From Escherichia coli (GTDB lineage Bacteria > Pseudomonadota > Gammaproteobacteria > Enterobacterales > Enterobacteriaceae), in NCBI RefSeq assembly GCF_029227855.1, contig NZ_CP074356.1: a stretch of DNA of 64,000 bases. One strand, given 5' to 3'. A program made the translations under genes and the position numbers. The notes beneath the pieces were generated by a model that did not search any database, was not told the DNA's origin, and saw only the letters and a list, made by a program, of their open reading frames with translations. Below are positions 4,065 through 20,013 of this stretch, one piece after another (position 1 is the stretch's first letter; every line of letters begins with the position of its first letter).

Positions 4065-4823
4065 ATGCATTACCAGCCAAAACAAGATTTACTCAATGAT
4101 CGCATTATCCTGGTGACGGGAGCCAGCGATGGTATTGGCCGTGAAGCCGCGATGACGTATGCACGCTATGGTGCGACAGTGATTCTGTTGGGCCGTAATG
4201 AAGAAAAATTACGTCAGGTAGCCAGCCACATAAACGAAGAAACTGGACGTCAGCCACAGTGGTTTATTCTCGATTTGCTGACCTGCACGTCCGAAGATTG
4301 CCAACAACTGGCACAGCGCATTGCCGTTAATTATCCGCGTCTGGATGGTGTTTTGCATAATGCCGGATTGCTCGGCGATGTTTGCCCAATGAGCGAACAA
4401 AATCCGCAGGTCTGGCAGGACGTCATGCAGGTCAACGTTAATGCCACCTTTATGCTCACCCAGGCACTGCTTCCTTTATTACTCAAATCGGACGCCGGTT
4501 CACTGGTCTTTACTTCATCAAGCGTTGGACGTCAGGGGCGTGCAAACTGGGGCGCATATGCAGCGTCGAAATTTGCCACCGAAGGGATGATGCAGGTACT
4601 GGCTGATGAATATCAGCAGCGTCTGCGCGTCAACTGTATTAACCCAGGCGGTACGCGCACCGCAATGCGGGCCAGTGCATTCCCGACCGAAGATCCACAG
4701 AAACTCAAAACACCCGCTGATATCATGCCGCTCTACCTCTGGCTGATGGGTGATGACAGCCGCCGTAAAACCGGCATGACCTTTGACGCCCAACCGGGCC
4801 GTAAACCAGGAATTTCCCAATGA
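4065..4823 (+). CDS. yciK: short-chain dehydrogenase/reductase YciK
   Basis: 252 aa; Rossmann motif VTGASDGIGRE near N-terminus; stop overlaps btuR start (ATGA at 4820-4823). Confidence 0.9.
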   Translation: MHYQPKQDLLNDRIILVTGASDGIGREAAMTYARYGATVILLGRNEEKLRQVASHINEETGRQPQWFILDLLTCTSEDCQQLAQRIAVNYPRLDGVLHNAGLLGDVCPMSEQNPQVWQDVMQVNVNATFMLTQALLPLLLKSDAGSLVFTSSSVGRQGRANWGAYAASKFATEGMMQVLADEYQQRLRVNCINPGGTRTAMRASAFPTEDPQKLKTPADIMPLYLWLMGDDSRRKTGMTFDAQPGRKPGISQ

Positions 4824-5410
4824 GTGATGAACGCTACCAACAGCGTCAGCAGCGAGTGAAAGAAAAAGTCGATGCTCGTGTGGCCCAGGCCCAGGATGAA
4901 CGCGGTATTATCATCGTCTTTACCGGCAATGGAAAAGGCAAAACCACCGCGGCATTTGGTACGGCAACTCGTGCAGTAGGCCATGGCAAAAAAGTGGGTA
5001 TCGTGCAGTTTATTAAAGGCACCTGGCCTAATGGCGAGCGCAATCTACTGGAGCCACATGGCGTTGAGTTTCAGGTGATGGCAACGGGCTTTACCTGGGA
5101 TACACAAAATCGCGAATCTGATACCGCGGCCTGCCGTGAAGTCTGGCAACATGCCAAACGAATGCTGGCCGATCCTTCACTGGATATGGTTTTGCTCGAT
5201 GAGCTGACTTATATGGTGGCGTATGATTATTTGCCACTGGAAGAAGTGGTGAAGGCGTTAAATGAACGTCCACATCAGCAAACCGTCATTATTACGGGTC
5301 GTGGTTGTCATCGGGATATTCTTGAACTGGCGGATACGGTAAGTGAATTACGCCCAGTGAAACATGCGTTTGATGCCGGTGTTAAGGCGCAAATAGGGAT
5401 TGATTATTAA
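4820..5410 (+). CDS. btuR: cob(I)yrinic acid a,c-diamide adenosyltransferase
   Basis: 196 aa; P-loop-like GNGKGKTTAAFG; translationally coupled to yciK. Confidence 0.9.
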   Translation: MSDERYQQRQQRVKEKVDARVAQAQDERGIIIVFTGNGKGKTTAAFGTATRAVGHGKKVGIVQFIKGTWPNGERNLLEPHGVEFQVMATGFTWDTQNRESDTAACREVWQHAKRMLADPSLDMVLLDELTYMVAYDYLPLEEVVKALNERPHQQTVIITGRGCHRDILELADTVSELRPVKHAFDAGVKAQIGIDY

Positions 5411-5415
5411 GAGAA

Positions 5416-5446
5416 AGCACCTCAAAAGATCGCCTCTTGAGGTGCT
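5416..5446. terminator. inverted repeat between convergent btuR and islet operon
   Basis: Perfect 10 bp stem AGCACCTCAA/TTGAGGTGCT with 11 nt loop, flanked by A/T; lies between the btuR stop and the stop of the 102 aa minus-strand gene. Confidence 0.5.
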
Positions 5447-5462
5447 TTAATCATAATTATAT

Positions 5463-5771
5463 TCAAGCGGCAATAGCAAAACTCAGAATCCGTTTTATCT
5501 CATTCAAATGTCCCTGATATGCTTCATGATTCTCAGCGTCAACATCTTCAATAAATAATATCAGTTCAGTAATTAACGCATTAGCATCGTCATAATTTAT
5601 CCCGGCTAACTCTGGCGAAGTTTCAGTACCATAGTTTATCGTCAGGTTGTTCATAACTGTGAGGATATGGATAAAGTATTTATGACAAACATTGCATGTG
5701 GTTTTATTACCCAAAGTATTATACAGCATATCAAGTAATGCCAGTATTCTACGGTTTTGCACATCGTTCAT
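5463..5771 (-). CDS. hypothetical 102 aa protein, second gene of low-GC islet (acidic C-terminal half, CxxCH motif)
   Basis: ORF track 102 aa MNDVQNRRILALLDMLYNTLGNKTTCNVCHKYF...; strong SD (TAGGAGGT) 7-8 nt upstream of ATG at 5771; only 10 nt after the stop of the upstream lipoprotein gene; AT-rich codon usage unlike flanking genes. No homolog recognised from memory. Confidence 0.6.
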   Translation of the reverse strand: MNDVQNRRILALLDMLYNTLGNKTTCNVCHKYFIHILTVMNNLTINYGTETSPELAGINYDDANALITELILFIEDVDAENHEAYQGHLNEIKRILSFAIAA

Positions 5772-5781
5772 AAAAAACCTC

Positions 5782-6783
5782 CTATAACATTATTCCGCTG
5801 GCAATAAGTAATTTTGCCAGCCCCTCAGACGCCTTTAACCCACTAATGACCTGTGCGCGTAATATTTCATTTAATCTTTTTTGTTCAGCTGCCGTGCGTG
5901 TTTTATTAACGTATAAGCTTTTCAGATAATCACCCTTATCTATAAAGGCATTTAAAGCCTCAATCGCAGGCATGGCAGGTGCCGATGCCTGTAGTCTGGT
6001 TTCATTCACATTGATTACTGAACTTAGAAACTCCTTCCTGTTTTTCAGAGTGTTAAACTCTGTATTCTTAGAGTTTTTAGATGCCGTATTATAATAAAAC
6101 ATATTATCATGCACATTCGCAAAGGTATAATTTTCAATCTTATTGCTTTTTGTATAAATATCATTGCGCAAAACTGCCATGTTCTTTATAAGTCTTACCC
6201 AGTTTTCATCTACCGTTTTGCCTATTTTTCCAGAATTGACTTTAATTATATATAACTCATTGAAATAATTTACCAAATCTTTAACCGCTGCTGCAGATTG
6301 AGCTAAATCTTTGCTATGTGAAACACCAAGTAGTGTTTGTGCGTTGTTTGCGTGATCCAGAGCCTGTTTAAGTAATGCCACTTGCTGACTTTCCGTAGTT
6401 GCCATATCCTTTGTCAGAAGTTCCACATAAGCGCTCATGCTATTAATGACTTCCATTGAAGCCAGTAATTTTTCTTTCTCGAAAGGGACTAATTGTACTT
6501 GTTTTGTATTTGGCCCTGAACGCTGGCATAATTTTCCGCCATTCCCATCACCGCCTATATCAATGGTATAATCAGGTCGCAGGGCACAATCCGGATTAGT
6601 CGCGTAGAAATTAACAAGGAAGTTTTCACGAGAAGCATAGTATTGTTTAAAGAAACTTGCATTCGCCGCTACTGCTTTGTTACCCGCAGTAATAACAGTT
6701 TCAGCTTGTTCGTTTTTCAATGCTTCAGTTGCACAACCTGAAAGCATTAACAGCGATAGAAATATTCCACTATATCTAATCAT
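5782..6783 (-). CDS. hypothetical lipoprotein (333 aa), first gene of low-GC islet; predicted outer-membrane sorted
   Basis: N-terminus MIRYSGIFLSLLMLSGC: basic n-region, hydrophobic core, lipobox L-S-G-C; residue after Cys is Ala (not Asp). SD GAGGTGGG upstream of ATG at 6783. Mature part is Asn/Lys-rich with two further Cys. GC about 28-37 percent in sampled 60 bp stretches versus about 50 percent in flanks. Confidence 0.7.
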   Translation of the reverse strand: MIRYSGIFLSLLMLSGCATEALKNEQAETVITAGNKAVAANASFFKQYYASRENFLVNFYATNPDCALRPDYTIDIGGDGNGGKLCQRSGPNTKQVQLVPFEKEKLLASMEVINSMSAYVELLTKDMATTESQQVALLKQALDHANNAQTLLGVSHSKDLAQSAAAVKDLVNYFNELYIIKVNSGKIGKTVDENWVRLIKNMAVLRNDIYTKSNKIENYTFANVHDNMFYYNTASKNSKNTEFNTLKNRKEFLSSVINVNETRLQASAPAMPAIEALNAFIDKGDYLKSLYVNKTRTAAEQKRLNEILRAQVISGLKASEGLAKLLIASGIML

Positions 6784-6914
6784 AACCCACCTCTTGACGT
6801 TGAATTTATCTCAGATAATTAAATAGTAATGTGGCTATTTCCGGGTATTATTCATAAGCAAGTATGAAATTAAATTAAAATACTGCGACTATTTATCATG
6901 CTTCAAATGAAGAA

Positions 6915-6940
6915 AAGGCCCCGCAGGGCCTTTATTTTAT
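6915..6940. terminator. bidirectional hairpin terminator downstream of rluB
   Basis: GGCCCCGCAGGGCC stem-loop flanked by A-run and T-run just after the rluB stop (minus strand); also bounds the islet promoter region. Confidence 0.6.
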
Positions 6941-6952
6941 ACTTATCTTAAA

Positions 6953-7828
6953 TTAACCGTTATTATTACGTCCGCCAGAACGGCGACCACCGCTCACCTG
7001 GCTATGACGTTTCACCGCACGACGAATCTGATTCGCCTTCATACGACGACGGTCTTTTTCTACGGCAACTTTAGAGCTGGTTTCTGGTGGCAGTTCCACC
7101 AGTTCACGCAGATAGTTAGTCTGAGCGAGGTCCAGCTCCGTCCAGCCACCGCGTGGCAGACCTTTTGGCAGTGGGATATCACCGTAACGCACACGGATCA
7201 GGCGACTTACCTGCACACCAACCGCTTCCCAAAGACGACGAACCTCACGGTTACGGCCTTCGGTCAGAGTAACGTTGTACCACTGGTTGATCCCTTCGCC
7301 GCCGCTGAACTTGATGGTTTTAAAGGCTGCCGGACCATCTTCCAGCTGCACGCCACGACTCAAATCACGCAGTTTCGCGTCGTCAACCTGACCAAATACA
7401 CGCACGGCATATTCACGTTCAACTTCACGGCTAGGATGCATTAAACGATTTGCCAGTTCACCGTCGGTGGTGAAGAGCAACAGACCACAGGTGTTAACGT
7501 CCAGACGACCTACGGCAATCCAGCGTGCGCCACGCAGCTTTGGCAGACGGTCAAACACCGTTGGACGCCCTTCCGGATCGTTACGGGTACACAACTCACC
7601 TTCCGGTTTGTAATAGGCCAGAACGCGACAAATTTGTTCAGCGGACTCACGTACCGAAATCAGGTGACCATCGATACGGATTTTCAATCCAGGGGTAATT
7701 TCAACACGATCGCCGAGTTTAGCAATTTTGCCATCAACACTCACACGACCGGCTTCAATAATAGATTCGATTTCACGGCGAGAACCGTGGCCGGCACGCG
7801 CCAGCACTTTCTGTAGCTTTTCGCTCAT
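6953..7828 (-). CDS. rluB: 23S rRNA pseudouridine(2605) synthase
   Basis: 291 aa; S4 domain N-terminus, RsuA-family catalytic core ([17 protein letters not shown]), Arg/Gly-rich basic C-tail. Confidence 0.9.
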
Positions 7829-7879
7829 AGAGCTTCCTTTTGGTGTCGCCTTCCCAGGCGTCTGATATGCTTTTGTGCA

Positions 7880-7911
7880 ACAGTGAGTCAGAACTTACAT
7901 CTGACTCACTG
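7880..7911. promoter_or_regulatory. perfect 12 bp inverted repeat in rluB upstream/leader region
   Basis: CAGTGAGTCAGA-ACTTACAT-TCTGACTCACTG at 7880-7911, about 55-85 bp upstream of the rluB start codon on its strand. Confidence 0.35.
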
Positions 7912-8038
7912 ATAGTAAAGTCTGTTTGAACTCTTCAGGCCTTAAGTAAACGACTCGACGTTTATCGGCCTGGCTTTGAGGCGCAACATACTACACTATC
8001 TTTATGGTTAAAGCTTGTTTCGATTAACATCAGCTTAA

Positions 8039-9934
8039 TTACCAGCCACCACCGCCTCCGCCACCCGCCCCGCCGCCAGCACCACCACCGGAATAACTTC
8101 GCCCCAACAAACTGGTATTGGCCCCCAGGCTCAGGTGCGTCTGTAATGAGAATAAAACGCCACTACGGGCAATTTCCGGGGCGCGAACAGCCGCTGTGAG
8201 TGATGGGGTGATACGTGCTGCCCATTCTCTGCCAAGGTTTGCCGAGACCGCCCAACCTAACAACGCGTAATCCAGTTTCCGTGTTTCCCCTTTCCGCCGC
8301 CGCCCACTGTGTGTTGCCGCCTCTTTACGCGCAAGATAGTTAACGATAGCTTCACCGTGGGCATAACGTTGCTGCCCAGTTTGGGTAAACTTTGGCAGAA
8401 AAATATACCCTATGCCAGTGAGATAACCGGTCAGGAAAACAGCGCTAAAATAACCCGCTGGCATATACCAGTAAAAGAATACATCTCCGACATTGATATA
8501 GAGAGAATAGAAGGCCACGCCTGAACAAATCAGTGGTAAAAACAAAGTGATGATTACACGATTAACGCAAGGCTTGTCATCATCGCGGGCAAATAAAAGC
8601 TCTAGGGAACAAAATAAAAAAGGAAGAAGCCAGCAGATCATAATAAACATATCGCCTACCAGACTCATTCCTGCCCAGCCTACGGGACTCAGGTTACCGT
8701 AGAGAATGACCGCCAATATTGCCATTCCGCCCCATTGCAAAAACGCATCAGGTCGGTAAAACGAAGACTTTTTACGCGGCAGATAAAATTTCTGCATCCG
8801 TAAAAATGCCTTGCGTAAGACTCTGTTGCGTCTCCCCGTAAGAACGACCTTATCGCCTTTACGAAATAACGCTTCCAGTAATAACTGCTCTGCGGGCAGT
8901 AATACCGCATTATTTCTGGTCGCGCCTTCATTAACACGAATCAGGATTTGCTGGTTCTTGTCATACTGATCTTTCAGATGAATTTTGCCTTTCACAATCA
9001 GATTTACGATATCGGCACAAAAACCTTTATCGTCGTAAACCAGTTTCGCATCGAGACGTAACATGCCGGGCGTGTAATCTGGCGGAATGACATCGGTTTC
9101 AATCACATCTACCGGCGTAAATTGTGGCCTGCGCTTCCAGAGATATAACCATCCACACGCCAGGAACAGACACGGAAACCAAATTAACAACGATGACGTA
9201 GAGGGTAAAAGAAGATGGCTGTAAATATTCGTCGTTTGTGGTGCCGGGGCATTACCAAGTAAAGCGTGAGGCCAGCGGTAGAGGACCGTGAAGTCTTCAC
9301 GATAAAACGGATCGCGGGATTCAATTCTTCCGTCCTCAAGGATGCGGCCATTTCGATATGTGTCGCCCTCTTCTCCAGTAAAGAGATCAATTTCGCTAAA
9401 TGGATTACCCGCAATATCAGGCAACTGGAGAGAAAATCGGGTCTTATAGATTTCAAACGGCCACTTGTTACCGGTCACGTTCCAGATTAACAGATCTGAA
9501 TCTCCCTCACGCAGGAAAGCATTTTTAACCTGATAATGAATTTGATAATGATAGTCGCCTTGAGGCAAGAAACGTTGTTTATCGCCCACGACAATACTCA
9601 TTAACCCGATATGCCAGTCAAGATGCCAGGGTTCAGGAATACCATCACGGGTGACGCCAACAATATGATAGTTCAGTAGTGCAGCGTCCCCATTAGGCTG
9701 CATCCATAGTCGTGGTAAATCACGATAAAATCCGTGCTTAATCTGCTGATTTCGCGCCTGAAAATGAATATTTTCTTTGATGTCGAGCACCCCATCCGGT
9801 TGCAGAGTGGCTTCAACATCAAAGAGCGAGATCCCTTCTTCATAAGAAGGGATCTCCGTGTTTTCTGCATAACTTAGAGATGCTACAAACAGCCCTGCTA
9901 TCAACAGCAAAATGCAGCGAAACTTCCCTGCCAT
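8039..9934 (-). CDS. yciQ: DUF2207-type membrane protein YciQ
   Basis: 631 aa; signal peptide, several TM helices, glycine-only C-terminal tail (GGGAGGGAGGGGGGGW). Confidence 0.85.
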   Translation of the reverse strand: MAGKFRCILLLIAGLFVASLSYAENTEIPSYEEGISLFDVEATLQPDGVLDIKENIHFQARNQQIKHGFYRDLPRLWMQPNGDAALLNYHIVGVTRDGIPEPWHLDWHIGLMSIVVGDKQRFLPQGDYHYQIHYQVKNAFLREGDSDLLIWNVTGNKWPFEIYKTRFSLQLPDIAGNPFSEIDLFTGEEGDTYRNGRILEDGRIESRDPFYREDFTVLYRWPHALLGNAPAPQTTNIYSHLLLPSTSSLLIWFPCLFLACGWLYLWKRRPQFTPVDVIETDVIPPDYTPGMLRLDAKLVYDDKGFCADIVNLIVKGKIHLKDQYDKNQQILIRVNEGATRNNAVLLPAEQLLLEALFRKGDKVVLTGRRNRVLRKAFLRMQKFYLPRKKSSFYRPDAFLQWGGMAILAVILYGNLSPVGWAGMSLVGDMFIMICWLLPFLFCSLELLFARDDDKPCVNRVIITLFLPLICSGVAFYSLYINVGDVFFYWYMPAGYFSAVFLTGYLTGIGYIFLPKFTQTGQQRYAHGEAIVNYLARKEAATHSGRRRKGETRKLDYALLGWAVSANLGREWAARITPSLTAAVRAPEIARSGVLFSLQTHLSLGANTSLLGRSYSGGGAGGGAGGGGGGGW

Positions 9935-17458: not shown

Positions 17459-18264
17459 TGCAACGCTACGAATCTCTGTTTGCCCAGTTGAAGGAGCGCA
17501 AAGAAGGCGCATTCGTTCCTTTCGTCACCCTCGGTGATCCGGGCATTGAGCAGTCGCTGAAAATTATCGACACGCTAATTGAAGCCGGTGCTGACGCGCT
17601 GGAGTTAGGTATCCCCTTCTCCGACCCACTGGCGGATGGCCCGACGATTCAAAACGCCACACTGCGTGCCTTTGCGGCAGGTGTGACCCCGGCACAGTGC
17701 TTTGAGATGCTGGCACTGATTCGCCAGAAGCACCCGACCATTCCCATCGGCCTTTTGATGTATGCCAACCTGGTGTTTAACAAAGGCATTGATGAGTTTT
17801 ATGCCCAGTGCGAGAAAGTCGGCGTCGATTCGGTGCTGGTTGCCGATGTGCCAGTGGAAGAGTCCGCTCCCTTCCGCCAGGCCGCGTTGCGTCATAATGT
17901 CGCACCTATCTTTATTTGCCCGCCGAATGCCGACGATGATTTGCTGCGCCAGATAGCCTCCTACGGTCGTGGATACACCTATTTATTGTCACGTGCGGGC
18001 GTGACCGGCGCAGAAAACCGCGCCGCGTTACCCCTCAATCATCTGGTCACGAAGCTGAAAGAGTACAATGCTGCGCCTCCATTGCAGGGCTTTGGTATTT
18101 CCGCCCCGGATCAGGTAAAAGCAGCGATTGATGCAGGAGCTGCGGGCGCGATTTCTGGTTCGGCCATTGTTAAAATCATCGAGCAACATATTAATGAGCC
18201 AGAGAAAATGCTGGCGGCACTGAAAGCTTTTGTACAACCGATGAAAGCGGCGACGCGCAGTTAA
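17458..18264 (+). CDS. trpA: tryptophan synthase alpha subunit
   Basis: 268 aa [28 protein letters not shown]... Confidence 0.97.
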
Positions 18265-18270
18265 TCCCAC

Positions 18271-18297
18271 AGCCGCCAGTACCGCTGGCGGCATTTT
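18271..18297 (+). terminator. trp operon terminator (trp t)
   Basis: AGCCGCCAGTACCGCTGGCGGC hairpin plus TTTT directly after the trpA stop. Confidence 0.85.
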
Positions 18298-18644
18298 AAC
18301 TTTCTTTAACGAAGCCGGAAAAATCCTAAATTCATTTTATATTTATCTTTTTACCGTTTCGCTTACCCCTGTCGAACGTCAACTTACGTTATTTTTCCGC
18401 CCAACAGTAATATAATCAAACAAATTAATCCCGCAACATAACACCAGTAAAATAAATAATTTTCTCTAAGTCACTTATTCCTCAGGCAATTGTTAATATA
18501 TCCAGAACGTTCCTCATAATATATTTTCCCACTTTCTTCTCGTTACGCTTAATTTGACTAATTCTCATTAGCGACTAATTTTAATGAGTGTCGACACACA
18601 ACACTCATATTAATCAAACAATGCAACGCAACGGGAGAAATAAC

Positions 18645-18824
18645 ATGGCCGAACATCGTGGTGGTTCAGGAAATTTCGCCGAAGACCGTGAGAAGGCATC
18701 CGACGCAGGCCGTAAAGGCGGTCAGCATAGCGGCGGTAATTTTAAAAATGATCCGCAACGCGCATCTGAAGCGGGTAAAAAAGGCGGTCAACAAAGCGGT
18801 GGTAATAAATCAGGCAAATCCTGA
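18645..18824 (+). CDS. yciG: KGG-repeat general stress protein YciG (59 aa)
   Basis: Start refined to internal ATG with SD GGGAGA: MAEHRGGSGNFAEDREKASDAGRKGGQHSGGNFKNDPQRASEAGKKGGQQSGGNKSGKS. Confidence 0.8.
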   Translation: MAEHRGGSGNFAEDREKASDAGRKGGQHSGGNFKNDPQRASEAGKKGGQQSGGNKSGKS

Positions 18825-18909
18825 TTCACCGTTAATTATTAATATCAGCTGATAAAGATAATTTCATCTGCGGGCCGTATGGCTCGCAGTGATTCCACTG
18901 GAGAAAAAT

Positions 18910-19410
18910 ATGAATATGAAGACCATTGAAGATGTATTTATTCACCTGCTTTCAGATACCTACAGCGCAGAAAAACAATTAACCCGTGCACTGGCAAAAC
19001 TCGCTAGAGCAACATCAAACGAAAAATTAAGTCAGGCTTTTCATGCGCACCTCGAGGAAACCCATGGACAGATTGAACGAATTGATCAAGTTGTGGAATC
19101 TGAATCGAACCTGAAAATTAAGCGCATGAAATGTGTGGCAATGGAAGGTCTCATTGAAGAAGCTAATGAGGTTATCGAAAGCACCGAGAAAAACGAAGTG
19201 CGTGATGCCGCACTGATTGCCGCAGCGCAGAAAGTCGAGCACTATGAGATCGCCAGTTACGGGACATTAGCGACGCTGGCTGAACAATTAGGTTACCGTA
19301 AAGCAGCGAAGCTTCTGAAAGAAACTCTTGAAGAAGAAAAGGCCACCGACATCAAACTGACTGATCTGGCACTTAATAACGTAAATAAGAAAGCCGAAAA
19401 TAAAGCCTGA
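18910..19410 (+). CDS. yciF: DUF892 ferritin-like stress protein YciF
   Basis: Start refined to MNMKTIEDVFIHLLSDTYSAEKQ (166 aa). Confidence 0.85.
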   Translation: MNMKTIEDVFIHLLSDTYSAEKQLTRALAKLARATSNEKLSQAFHAHLEETHGQIERIDQVVESESNLKIKRMKCVAMEGLIEEANEVIESTEKNEVRDAALIAAAQKVEHYEIASYGTLATLAEQLGYRKAAKLLKETLEEEKATDIKLTDLALNNVNKKAENKA

Positions 19411-19455
19411 AATATGAATTTTCACTTTTAGTCATTTTATAAAGAGGACATTTTC

Positions 19456-19962
19456 ATGAATCGTATTGAACATTATCATGACTGGTTACGTGACGCCCAC
19501 GCAATGGAAAAGCAAGCCGAATCTATGCTTGAATCCATGGCCAGTCGTATAGATAATTATCCTGAACTACGCGCTCGTATTGAACAACATCTTAGTGAAA
19601 CCAAAAACCAGATTATTCAACTGGAAACTATTCTTGATCGTAATGACATTTCACGTTCAGTCATTAAAGATTCCATGAGTAAAATGGCTGCGCTTGGGCA
19701 GTCAATCGGTGGTATATTCCCTTCTGATGAAATAGTCAAAGGCTCTATTAGCGGATATGTCTTCGAGCAATTTGAAATCGCCTGTTACACCTCACTATTA
19801 GCAGCAGCAAAAAATGCCGGTGATACAGCTTCAATTCCAACCATCGAAGCGATTTTAAATGAGGAAAAGCAAATGGCCGACTGGCTGATTCAGCATATTC
19901 CGCAAACAACTGAGAAATTTTTAATTCGCTCTGAAACTGATGGCGTAGAAGCGAAGAAATAA
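19456..19962 (+). CDS. yciE: DUF892 ferritin-like stress protein YciE
   Basis: 168 aa, paralog-like to yciF; last gene of yciGFE cluster. Confidence 0.85.
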   Translation: MNRIEHYHDWLRDAHAMEKQAESMLESMASRIDNYPELRARIEQHLSETKNQIIQLETILDRNDISRSVIKDSMSKMAALGQSIGGIFPSDEIVKGSISGYVFEQFEIACYTSLLAAAKNAGDTASIPTIEAILNEEKQMADWLIQHIPQTTEKFLIRSETDGVEAKK

Positions 19963-19986
19963 TACCCTTTATGCCATGTCCTTATT

Positions 19987-20013
19987 GACCCCGTATATTA
20001 CGGGGTCGTTTTT
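19987..20013 (+). terminator. yciGFE terminator
   Basis: GACCCCG-TATATTA-CGGGGTC hairpin followed by GTTTTT. Confidence 0.7.

Follow-up and report, generated by a model that had tools for sequence, protein, structure and literature searches.

The window analyzed here is a 64,000-nucleotide (nt) stretch of the Escherichia coli chromosome (NCBI RefSeq assembly GCF_029227855.1, contig NZ_CP074356.1), in which the genes yciN, sohB, yciK and cobO (btuR) are followed by a small AT-rich islet and then by rluB, yciQ, yciO, trpH and trpEDC. This islet, which is 1,542 bp in length (5411..6952) and spans the region from the stop codon of cobO/btuR to that of rluB, contains only two genes: one codes for a predicted outer-membrane lipoprotein and the other for a 102-residue protein that we refer to as its partner. 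In E. coli K-12 the convergent rluB and btuR genes are separated by 39 bp with a single hairpin; in the window this entire spacer is replaced by the islet, whose GC content is 34-39% as against ~50-54% in the flanks. No repeats or mobility genes were seen at the islet junctions. The NCBI Prokaryotic Genome Annotation Pipeline (PGAP) and public sources annotate both proteins as 'hypothetical', UniProt automatically labels some copies of the first as 'putative lipoprotein', and no paper in the literature collection searched mentions the RefSeq accessions of either.

The lipoprotein gene lies on the minus strand (5782..6783, ATG to TAG, with the stop codon included in the coordinates) and encodes 333 amino acids. 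A preliminary description of this locus had picked out a real open reading frame (ORF) here and quoted its motifs exactly, while leaving the strand unstated; a plus-strand reading of the same interval is interrupted by many stops and was rejected. A strong Shine-Dalgarno sequence, GAGGTGGG, can be read 2-3 nt 5' of the ATG (6786..6793, minus strand). The translation opens with MIRYSGIFLSLLMLSGCATEA and further contains the segments PDCALRP (with Cys66), IDIGGDGNGG (residues 74-83) and GKLCQRS (with Cys86). Its first 16 codons are predicted to specify a signal peptide, which together with the lipidated Cys17 occupies 6733..6783 (minus strand) and includes the lipobox L14-S15-G16-C17 at 6733-6744 (minus strand). 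The PROSITE profile PS51257 describes such signals as [LVI][ASTVI][GAS]-C, where the cysteine falls within residues 15-35, a hydrophobic stretch free of charged residues comes before the lipobox and a lysine or arginine is found among the first seven residues. The segment MIRYSGIFLSLLMLSGC agrees with this description, having R3 in the n-region, six uncharged positions before the lipobox, the L-S-G-C tetrad and Cys17. Immediately after this segment the protein reads ATEA, placing Ala at +2 and Thr at +3. Under the Lol-avoidance rule of E. coli, Asp at +2 leads to retention, and a residue other than Asp at this position predicts sorting to the outer membrane. Given the Ala at +2 in the window protein, and that none of the 40 aligned family members has Asp there, the rule predicts outer-membrane sorting. 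The mature protein (316 residues; isoelectric point, pI, 8.9) contains 9.8% Asn, 8.5% Lys and 6.0% Thr, and this Asn/Lys-rich composition fits the low GC content of the islet.

A word-indexed search recovered relatives of this protein only in E. coli, E. albertii (65% identity) and Citrobacter (51% identity). An exhaustive hidden Markov model (HMM) search with a profile of 13 sequences yielded 56 matches, about 30 of them full-length (324-357 residues) at 15-25% identity. Relatives were found in three Sphingomonas genomes, indicating that the family spans at least the Gamma- and Alphaproteobacteria. In an alignment of 40 members, extending down to ~17% identity, only four positions are invariant, namely the lipobox Cys17, Cys66, Cys86 and Tyr119. 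The strict lipoprotein rule is passed by 34 of these 40 members, and all of them display [AGS]-Cys at the aligned column; since the cysteine is retained in every member to such low identity, the lipoprotein call exceeds what would be expected by chance. Apart from the signal peptide, no member has a stretch hydrophobic enough to be a transmembrane segment. These observations strongly support the prediction, made from sequence, that the protein is exported by the Sec system, processed by signal peptidase II, handed to the Lol system and anchored in the outer membrane. The basic n-region, hydrophobic core and lipobox noted in the preliminary description, as well as its prediction of Lol-dependent delivery from the alanine at +2, thus hold for the family as a whole. 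The window protein matched nothing in Pfam even at E <= 10, a Pfam scan of all 40 members gave no meaningful match, NCBIfam gave no match for the window protein, and sequence searches of the PDB with both the 13- and 40-sequence profiles returned coiled-coil noise only (E >= 0.01). Sequence comparisons therefore strongly support the view that this is an unnamed family, absent from all the libraries searched and thinly spread through the Proteobacteria. The paucity of invariant positions (three cysteines and one tyrosine), along with the lack of matches in Pfam, NCBIfam and the PDB, is more in keeping with a structural or binding role than with an enzymatic one, in agreement with what had been proposed from the window sequence.

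A structural model obtained with AlphaFold (AF2) from the 40-sequence alignment (predicted local distance difference test score, pLDDT, 71; predicted template-modeling score, pTM, 0.68) shows a bundle of long helices (15-62, 103-124, 131-153, 158-183, 187-236, 246-264, 268-292 and 298-328) with one beta-hairpin; an initial run on 13 close homologs was unusable (pLDDT 52). The bundle proper comprises approximately residues 100-333 (5785..6484, minus strand); Tyr119, which is invariant, falls within it, and its C-terminal helix is amphipathic and conserved. The hairpin, with predicted strands at 73-77 and 93-97, is inserted after the first helix and lies with the Cys66-Cys86 segment at 6493..6588 (minus strand). 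The model thus strongly supports a soluble long-helix bundle as the mature part of the protein. As Cys66 and Cys86 are invariant in the 40 homologs and flank the predicted hairpin, they probably staple it as a disulfide. Between alleles this segment shows indels and the highest nonsynonymous divergence in the lipoprotein (pN 0.33-0.50), with a ratio to the synonymous value (pN/pS) of ~0.6-0.8. The preliminary description had raised the possibility of a disulfide between these cysteines and predicted that the Asn/Lys/Thr-rich region would be helical, and both suggestions are consistent with the alignment and with a predicted structure that is almost wholly helix. The Gly-rich turn IDIGGDGNGG to which it also drew attention is indeed present, but it is a hypervariable, allele-specific feature rather than a conserved motif. 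A fold search of BFVD recovered nothing at E <= 0.001. A Foldseek search of AFDB50 recovered members of the family automatically named 'Lipoprotein' or 'Putative lipoprotein', uncharacterized proteins and four DUF3829 proteins.

The second gene of the islet (5463..5771, minus strand) begins 10 nt 3' of the lipoprotein gene and encodes an acidic protein (102 residues, pI 4.8) with neither a signal peptide nor a transmembrane segment. Its AGGAGG Shine-Dalgarno sequence overlaps the stop codon of the lipoprotein gene. The two genes are translationally coupled and occur together across the same taxa. Examination of the gene contexts of the family revealed a same-strand ORF 1-25 nt downstream of the lipoprotein gene in all 13 contexts, while the remaining neighbors differ. 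In nine of these (the window, Citrobacter L007, L002-4, L005-6, L011, L012-14, L016, L018 and L019) the partner is short (88-108 residues), mostly acidic (pI 4.5-5.3) and devoid of a signal peptide or transmembrane segment. In the four sphingomonad-type contexts it is long (253-275 residues), being encoded at 2171-2980 in L010, 9003-9830 in L025, 6296-7057 in L027 and 3387-4154 in L026, the last assigned by size and position only. The long partners of L010, L025 and L027 begin with a soluble domain, which a linker (poly-Pro in L025) connects to a hydrophobic domain at the C terminus; the latter contains the conserved motif [DE]P-x(0,1)-YY...LFP-x-EA and probably resides in the inner membrane. 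The long partners of L025 and L010 are clearly related to each other (41% identity, E = 4e-45), and the short partner of L011 shares 26% identity with that of the window. The window partner matched nothing in Pfam or the PDB beyond a weak zf-FCS hit (E = 0.14), and the one long partner that was scanned, that of L010, has no recorded Pfam match. As a separate observation, the enteric copies of the short partner contain a C-x2-C-H motif (TTCNVCHKYF in the window; Cys26, Cys29 and His30), of which Cys26 alone is invariant across the enteric group and L011, and distant partners lack the motif. Overall, the contexts strongly support the conclusion that the lipoprotein family is encoded as a conserved two-gene cassette with an immediately downstream, non-secreted partner.

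The cassette is bounded by two terminator-like hairpins. The first follows the partner gene and is shared with the convergent cobO (5414..5448, minus strand; a 15-bp stem of -23.9 kcal/mol, z = -6.5, followed by UCUCUU), and the second, at the rluB end (6914..6933), is bidirectional and insulates the cassette from read-through. An Rfam search of the islet returned sub-threshold noise only and no RNA family at threshold.

A survey of 5,426 complete E. coli genomes recovered the cassette in 1,234 (~23%) and an empty junction, as in K-12, in 4,182. The carriers fall into two main allele classes: approximately 424 genomes are >90% identical to the window, and approximately 810, among them pandemic O25b:H4-ST131, are at roughly 71% identity. 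Ratios of nonsynonymous to synonymous divergence (dN/dS; Nei-Gojobori) are 0.09-0.25 in the lipoprotein gene and 0.11-0.19 in that of the partner, which indicates purifying selection on both. Between the allele classes dS is ~1, whereas it is 0.06-0.16 for the flanking rluB of the same genomes, implying either that the alleles predate the core genome around them by far or that they were imported. They are also mosaic. Codons 1-60 are nearly identical across the classes, and allele L023 is of the window type in its 3' end and its partner as well, and diverged in the center only. The presence of a swapped center with an unchanged partner in L023 indicates that variation in the hairpin does not track the partner.

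In one genome of the ~71% class PGAP flags the lipoprotein gene as 'frameshifted'. The lesion, near codon 296, is the loss of a single T that changes a run of Ts from GATTTATAC to GATTATAC and cuts short the conserved helix at the C terminus. Three of the ~776 genomes of the ST131-type class have it, one being L022 (E. coli S1-IND-02-A, 1806-2827), and we accordingly rejected widespread pseudogenization of this allele. In one further E. coli genome (NZ_CP029420.1) an IS1-family transposase insertion splits the cassette in two. Many of the lipoprotein sequences in the databases (protein clusters P0016 and P0002) are 'partial' and stop where a contig of ~100 kb stops; short-read assemblies often break within this AT-rich gene. 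An apparent third allele with 33% identity on the 'plasmid' CP054249.1 was likewise discarded, because the sequence is a frameshift-ridden chromosome fragment bearing the ~65% allele. Both this entry and CP054253.1, listed as plasmids of E. coli STO_Bone4 in PLSDB, contain trpD, trpL, rluB and cobO with the cassette and many frameshifts, and look like low-quality chromosome fragments that have been mislabeled.

The cassette is found at the identical rluB-cobO site in Citrobacter, and elsewhere in quite different surroundings. One copy lies between the tail-completion genes R/S and the baseplate gene V of a P2-like prophage, a slot which in P2 itself holds the non-essential orf30 between S and V. 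Another is found beside genes for VapBC, Fic, MazG_C and a Y1 transposase, and yet another beside a DDE transposase. These contexts strongly support a self-contained and horizontally mobile cassette. Some further features of the neighborhoods may be recorded. In Citrobacter sp. ANG330 (L007, 4232-5828) rluB directly follows yciO, the gene yciQ (a 631-residue DUF2207 gene at 8039-9934 in the window) being absent. In Sphingomonas sp. PAMC 26621 (L027) the cassette is flanked by two ORFs (4068-4994 and 7085-8164) whose translations show, by eye, the motifs of a DRGH-type non-specific endonuclease and of an HExxH thermolysin-like protein. GC content is also reduced, to 0.40-0.45, at 18001-20000 of the window, downstream of the trp operon.

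Taken together, we consider it very likely that the lipoprotein gene is genuine and maintained, and that it encodes an outer-membrane lipoprotein, composed of a helical bundle with a stapled hairpin, as part of a mobile two-gene cassette. That the gene is genuine is indicated by its intact ORF with a Shine-Dalgarno sequence, by the low dN/dS and by the rarity of the frameshift. The interpretation reached earlier from the window alone is thereby supported in silico, but it overlooked the conserved two-gene cassette, which is the informative unit. What this unit might do is a more tentative matter. The low GC content, the presence/absence polymorphism, the diverged and recombining alleles, the diversifying disulfide loop and the one prophage cargo site lead us to favor, with due reserve, the possibility that the cassette serves as an accessory module for protection of, or exclusion at, the envelope. 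The outer-membrane lipoprotein could then engage a variable incoming or external ligand via its hypervariable disulfide-stapled hairpin, candidates for which would be a receptor-binding or injection component of a phage, a bacteriocin or a contact-delivered toxin. The partner, for its part, might act on the cytoplasmic or inner-membrane side; for example, it could be a chaperone or regulator dedicated to the lipoprotein before its export, or else supply the module's inner-membrane half. It is a less likely proposition that the lipoprotein and its partner constitute a hitherto undescribed, horizontally mobile, two-gene envelope defense or exclusion system.

Several observations weigh against this protective role. 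A cytoplasmic partner would be hard to fit into a simple model in which the exported lipoprotein masks a receptor. The pN/pS of the hairpin remains below 1, and positive selection is hence not demonstrated; the AF2 model on which the hairpin is seen is itself only moderately confident (pLDDT 71). A tblastn search with two family members against 50,697 phage genomes (INPHARED) gave no match, and pattern scans of IMG/VR (A1, P0052) confirmed no relative. Phage carriage as a rule was rejected on these grounds, and carriage by prophages rests on one case. The E. coli site, lying between housekeeping genes, is essentially bi-allelic, as 5,416 of the 5,426 complete genomes are either empty or islet-bearing, and the notion of a cargo hotspot between rluB and cobO was therefore rejected. 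HMMs from PADLOC-DB v2 recovered no family for either cassette protein at E <= 1, and PHROGs produced only matches at the level of the signal peptide (E >= 0.04). Profile-profile comparison with hhalign detected no homology between the enteric and the distant short partners (probability 0.1%), such that the equivalence of the partners rests on position, size and character. Finally, the cassette of Sphingomonas sits among ordinary chromosomal genes, a setting that fits a physiological role equally well as defense.

Alternatively, the cassette could be an accessory for envelope sensing or homeostasis, with a housekeeping-like, lineage-specific function. In the manner of four-helix-bundle sensor domains, the helical bundle would recognize a small ligand or a component of the envelope in the periplasm, and would act together with the inner-membrane or cytoplasmic partner. 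We regard this as rather unlikely, since the fold matches that evoke it are generic helical bundles at <=13% identity, no signaling domain was found in the lipoprotein or the partner, and the low GC, the prophage cargo position and an inter-allele dS of ~1 are unusual for a housekeeping function.

The hypervariable hairpin that would contact a ligand in the protection module could instead be read as an exposed antigenic loop, making the protein a host-interaction surface lipoprotein with a role in serum resistance, immune evasion or adhesion, like TraT, Bor/Iss or the helical-bundle lipoproteins of Borrelia. The occurrence of relatives in environmental Sphingomonas and in metagenomes without host association makes this unlikely; moreover, nothing tested predicts surface exposure, the fold matches to Borrelia proteins are to generic four-helix structures, and the conserved non-secreted partner is unaccounted for.

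A question of ancestry rather than of function, and hence compatible with any of the functional readings, is whether the family is a distant, unrecognized branch of DUF3829 (YiiG-like). The four DUF3829 proteins recovered from AFDB50 by Foldseek are similar in length to the query (E 1.6e-4 to 0.1, TM-score ~0.36-0.56, for a query model of pLDDT 71), and E. coli YiiG is likewise a helical lipoprotein of ~350 residues. Yet none of the 40 members matched PF12889 at E <= 0.1, and an hhalign comparison of the family profile with YiiG aligned the signal peptide only (probability 2.6%). Further, YiiG has Asp at +2, which implies retention in the inner membrane, and lacks the cysteine pair. We therefore rejected membership in DUF3829 at the sequence and profile level, leaving a possible resemblance of fold and a low probability of common descent; DUF3829 is in any case also without known function.

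We also considered an addiction pair of the toxin-antitoxin type, in which the basic lipoprotein (pI 8.9) would be harmful and the acidic partner (pI ~4.5-5.3) would neutralize it before export; if so, the cassette would persist without benefit to the host. The opposite charges, the tight translational coupling, the mobility of the cassette and the toxin-antitoxin and Fic genes near it in one context speak for such an arrangement. It is nonetheless improbable, as the two proteins are predicted to end in different compartments and no toxin-like domain or hydrophobic pore-forming segment is present; the three genomes with a frameshifted lipoprotein show no problem, but are uninformative on this point. 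Lastly, a non-functional ORF decaying in junk AT-rich DNA, to which the PGAP 'frameshifted' flag and the IS1 insertion in one genome each, and the failure to find a consensus sigma-70 promoter upstream of the lipoprotein gene, might be thought to point, is effectively refuted by the dN/dS of 0.09-0.25 over a dS of up to ~1, the intact reading frame in ~773 of 776 genomes of the ~71% class, and the full-length homologs across the Proteobacteria that keep the lipobox and the cysteine pair.

Two specific functional candidates were discarded. An alpha-helical pore-forming toxin of the ClyA type was rejected on hydrophobicity and context, as the protein shows neither the hydrophobic beta-tongue or hairpin of such toxins nor a match in fold to ClyA/Hbl/Nhe. 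A unimolecular spanin combines an N-terminal lipobox with a C-terminal transmembrane helix of ~20 residues; here the C-terminal hydrophobic tail is ~13 residues long, the best 19-residue Kyte-Doolittle window reaches 1.12 and no lysis cassette is present.

A lipoprotein prediction taken alone would be ordinary and of modest curiosity. What the present analysis adds is an unnamed family with a disulfide-hairpin signature, encoded in a two-gene cassette that is present in ~23% of complete E. coli genomes, ST131 included, as anciently diverged and recombining alleles. Should the cassette prove to be an envelope exclusion or protection system, it would represent a new type in the defense and competition repertoire and would explain a stable presence/absence polymorphism in a core chromosomal region of E. 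coli; if not, it would be one more accessory lipoprotein.

Comparison with known systems places the protein beside several of them without merging it into any. In its n-region, hydrophobic core, L-S-G-C lipobox, Cys17 and non-Asp residue at +2 it resembles the Lol-sorted outer-membrane lipoproteins of the PS51257 class, but no named family in Pfam, NCBIfam, PHROGs, PADLOC or the PDB accommodates its mature domain. DUF3829/YiiG (PF12889) is the sole named family to recur in the AFDB fold search, and shares with it a lipoprotein of similar length and a bundle of long helices; unlike the present family, YiiG has Asp at +2 and lacks the conserved cysteine pair, the hairpin and any evident partner-gene arrangement. 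The periplasmic four-helix-bundle sensors (the ligand-binding domains of Tar/Tsr, TorS and PcaY) are generic matches at <=12% identity, and differ in being domains of transmembrane receptors without a disulfide hairpin. The prophage-encoded exclusion and conversion lipoproteins, i.e. Llp of T5, Cor of phi80 and N15, TraT and Bor, are outer-membrane lipoproteins on accessory or prophage cargo, encoded by single small genes with no cytoplasmic partner. The family described here likewise has one member in a P2 cargo slot; in contrast to them, it shows no sequence or PHROG similarity to these proteins, and its E. coli cassette lies outside any prophage and includes a partner. As for the stapled hairpin, the D-region of type IV pilins, a hypervariable loop bounded by a disulfide in an envelope protein that is conserved elsewhere, offers a parallel strictly by analogy, the two being unrelated in fold, location and biogenesis.

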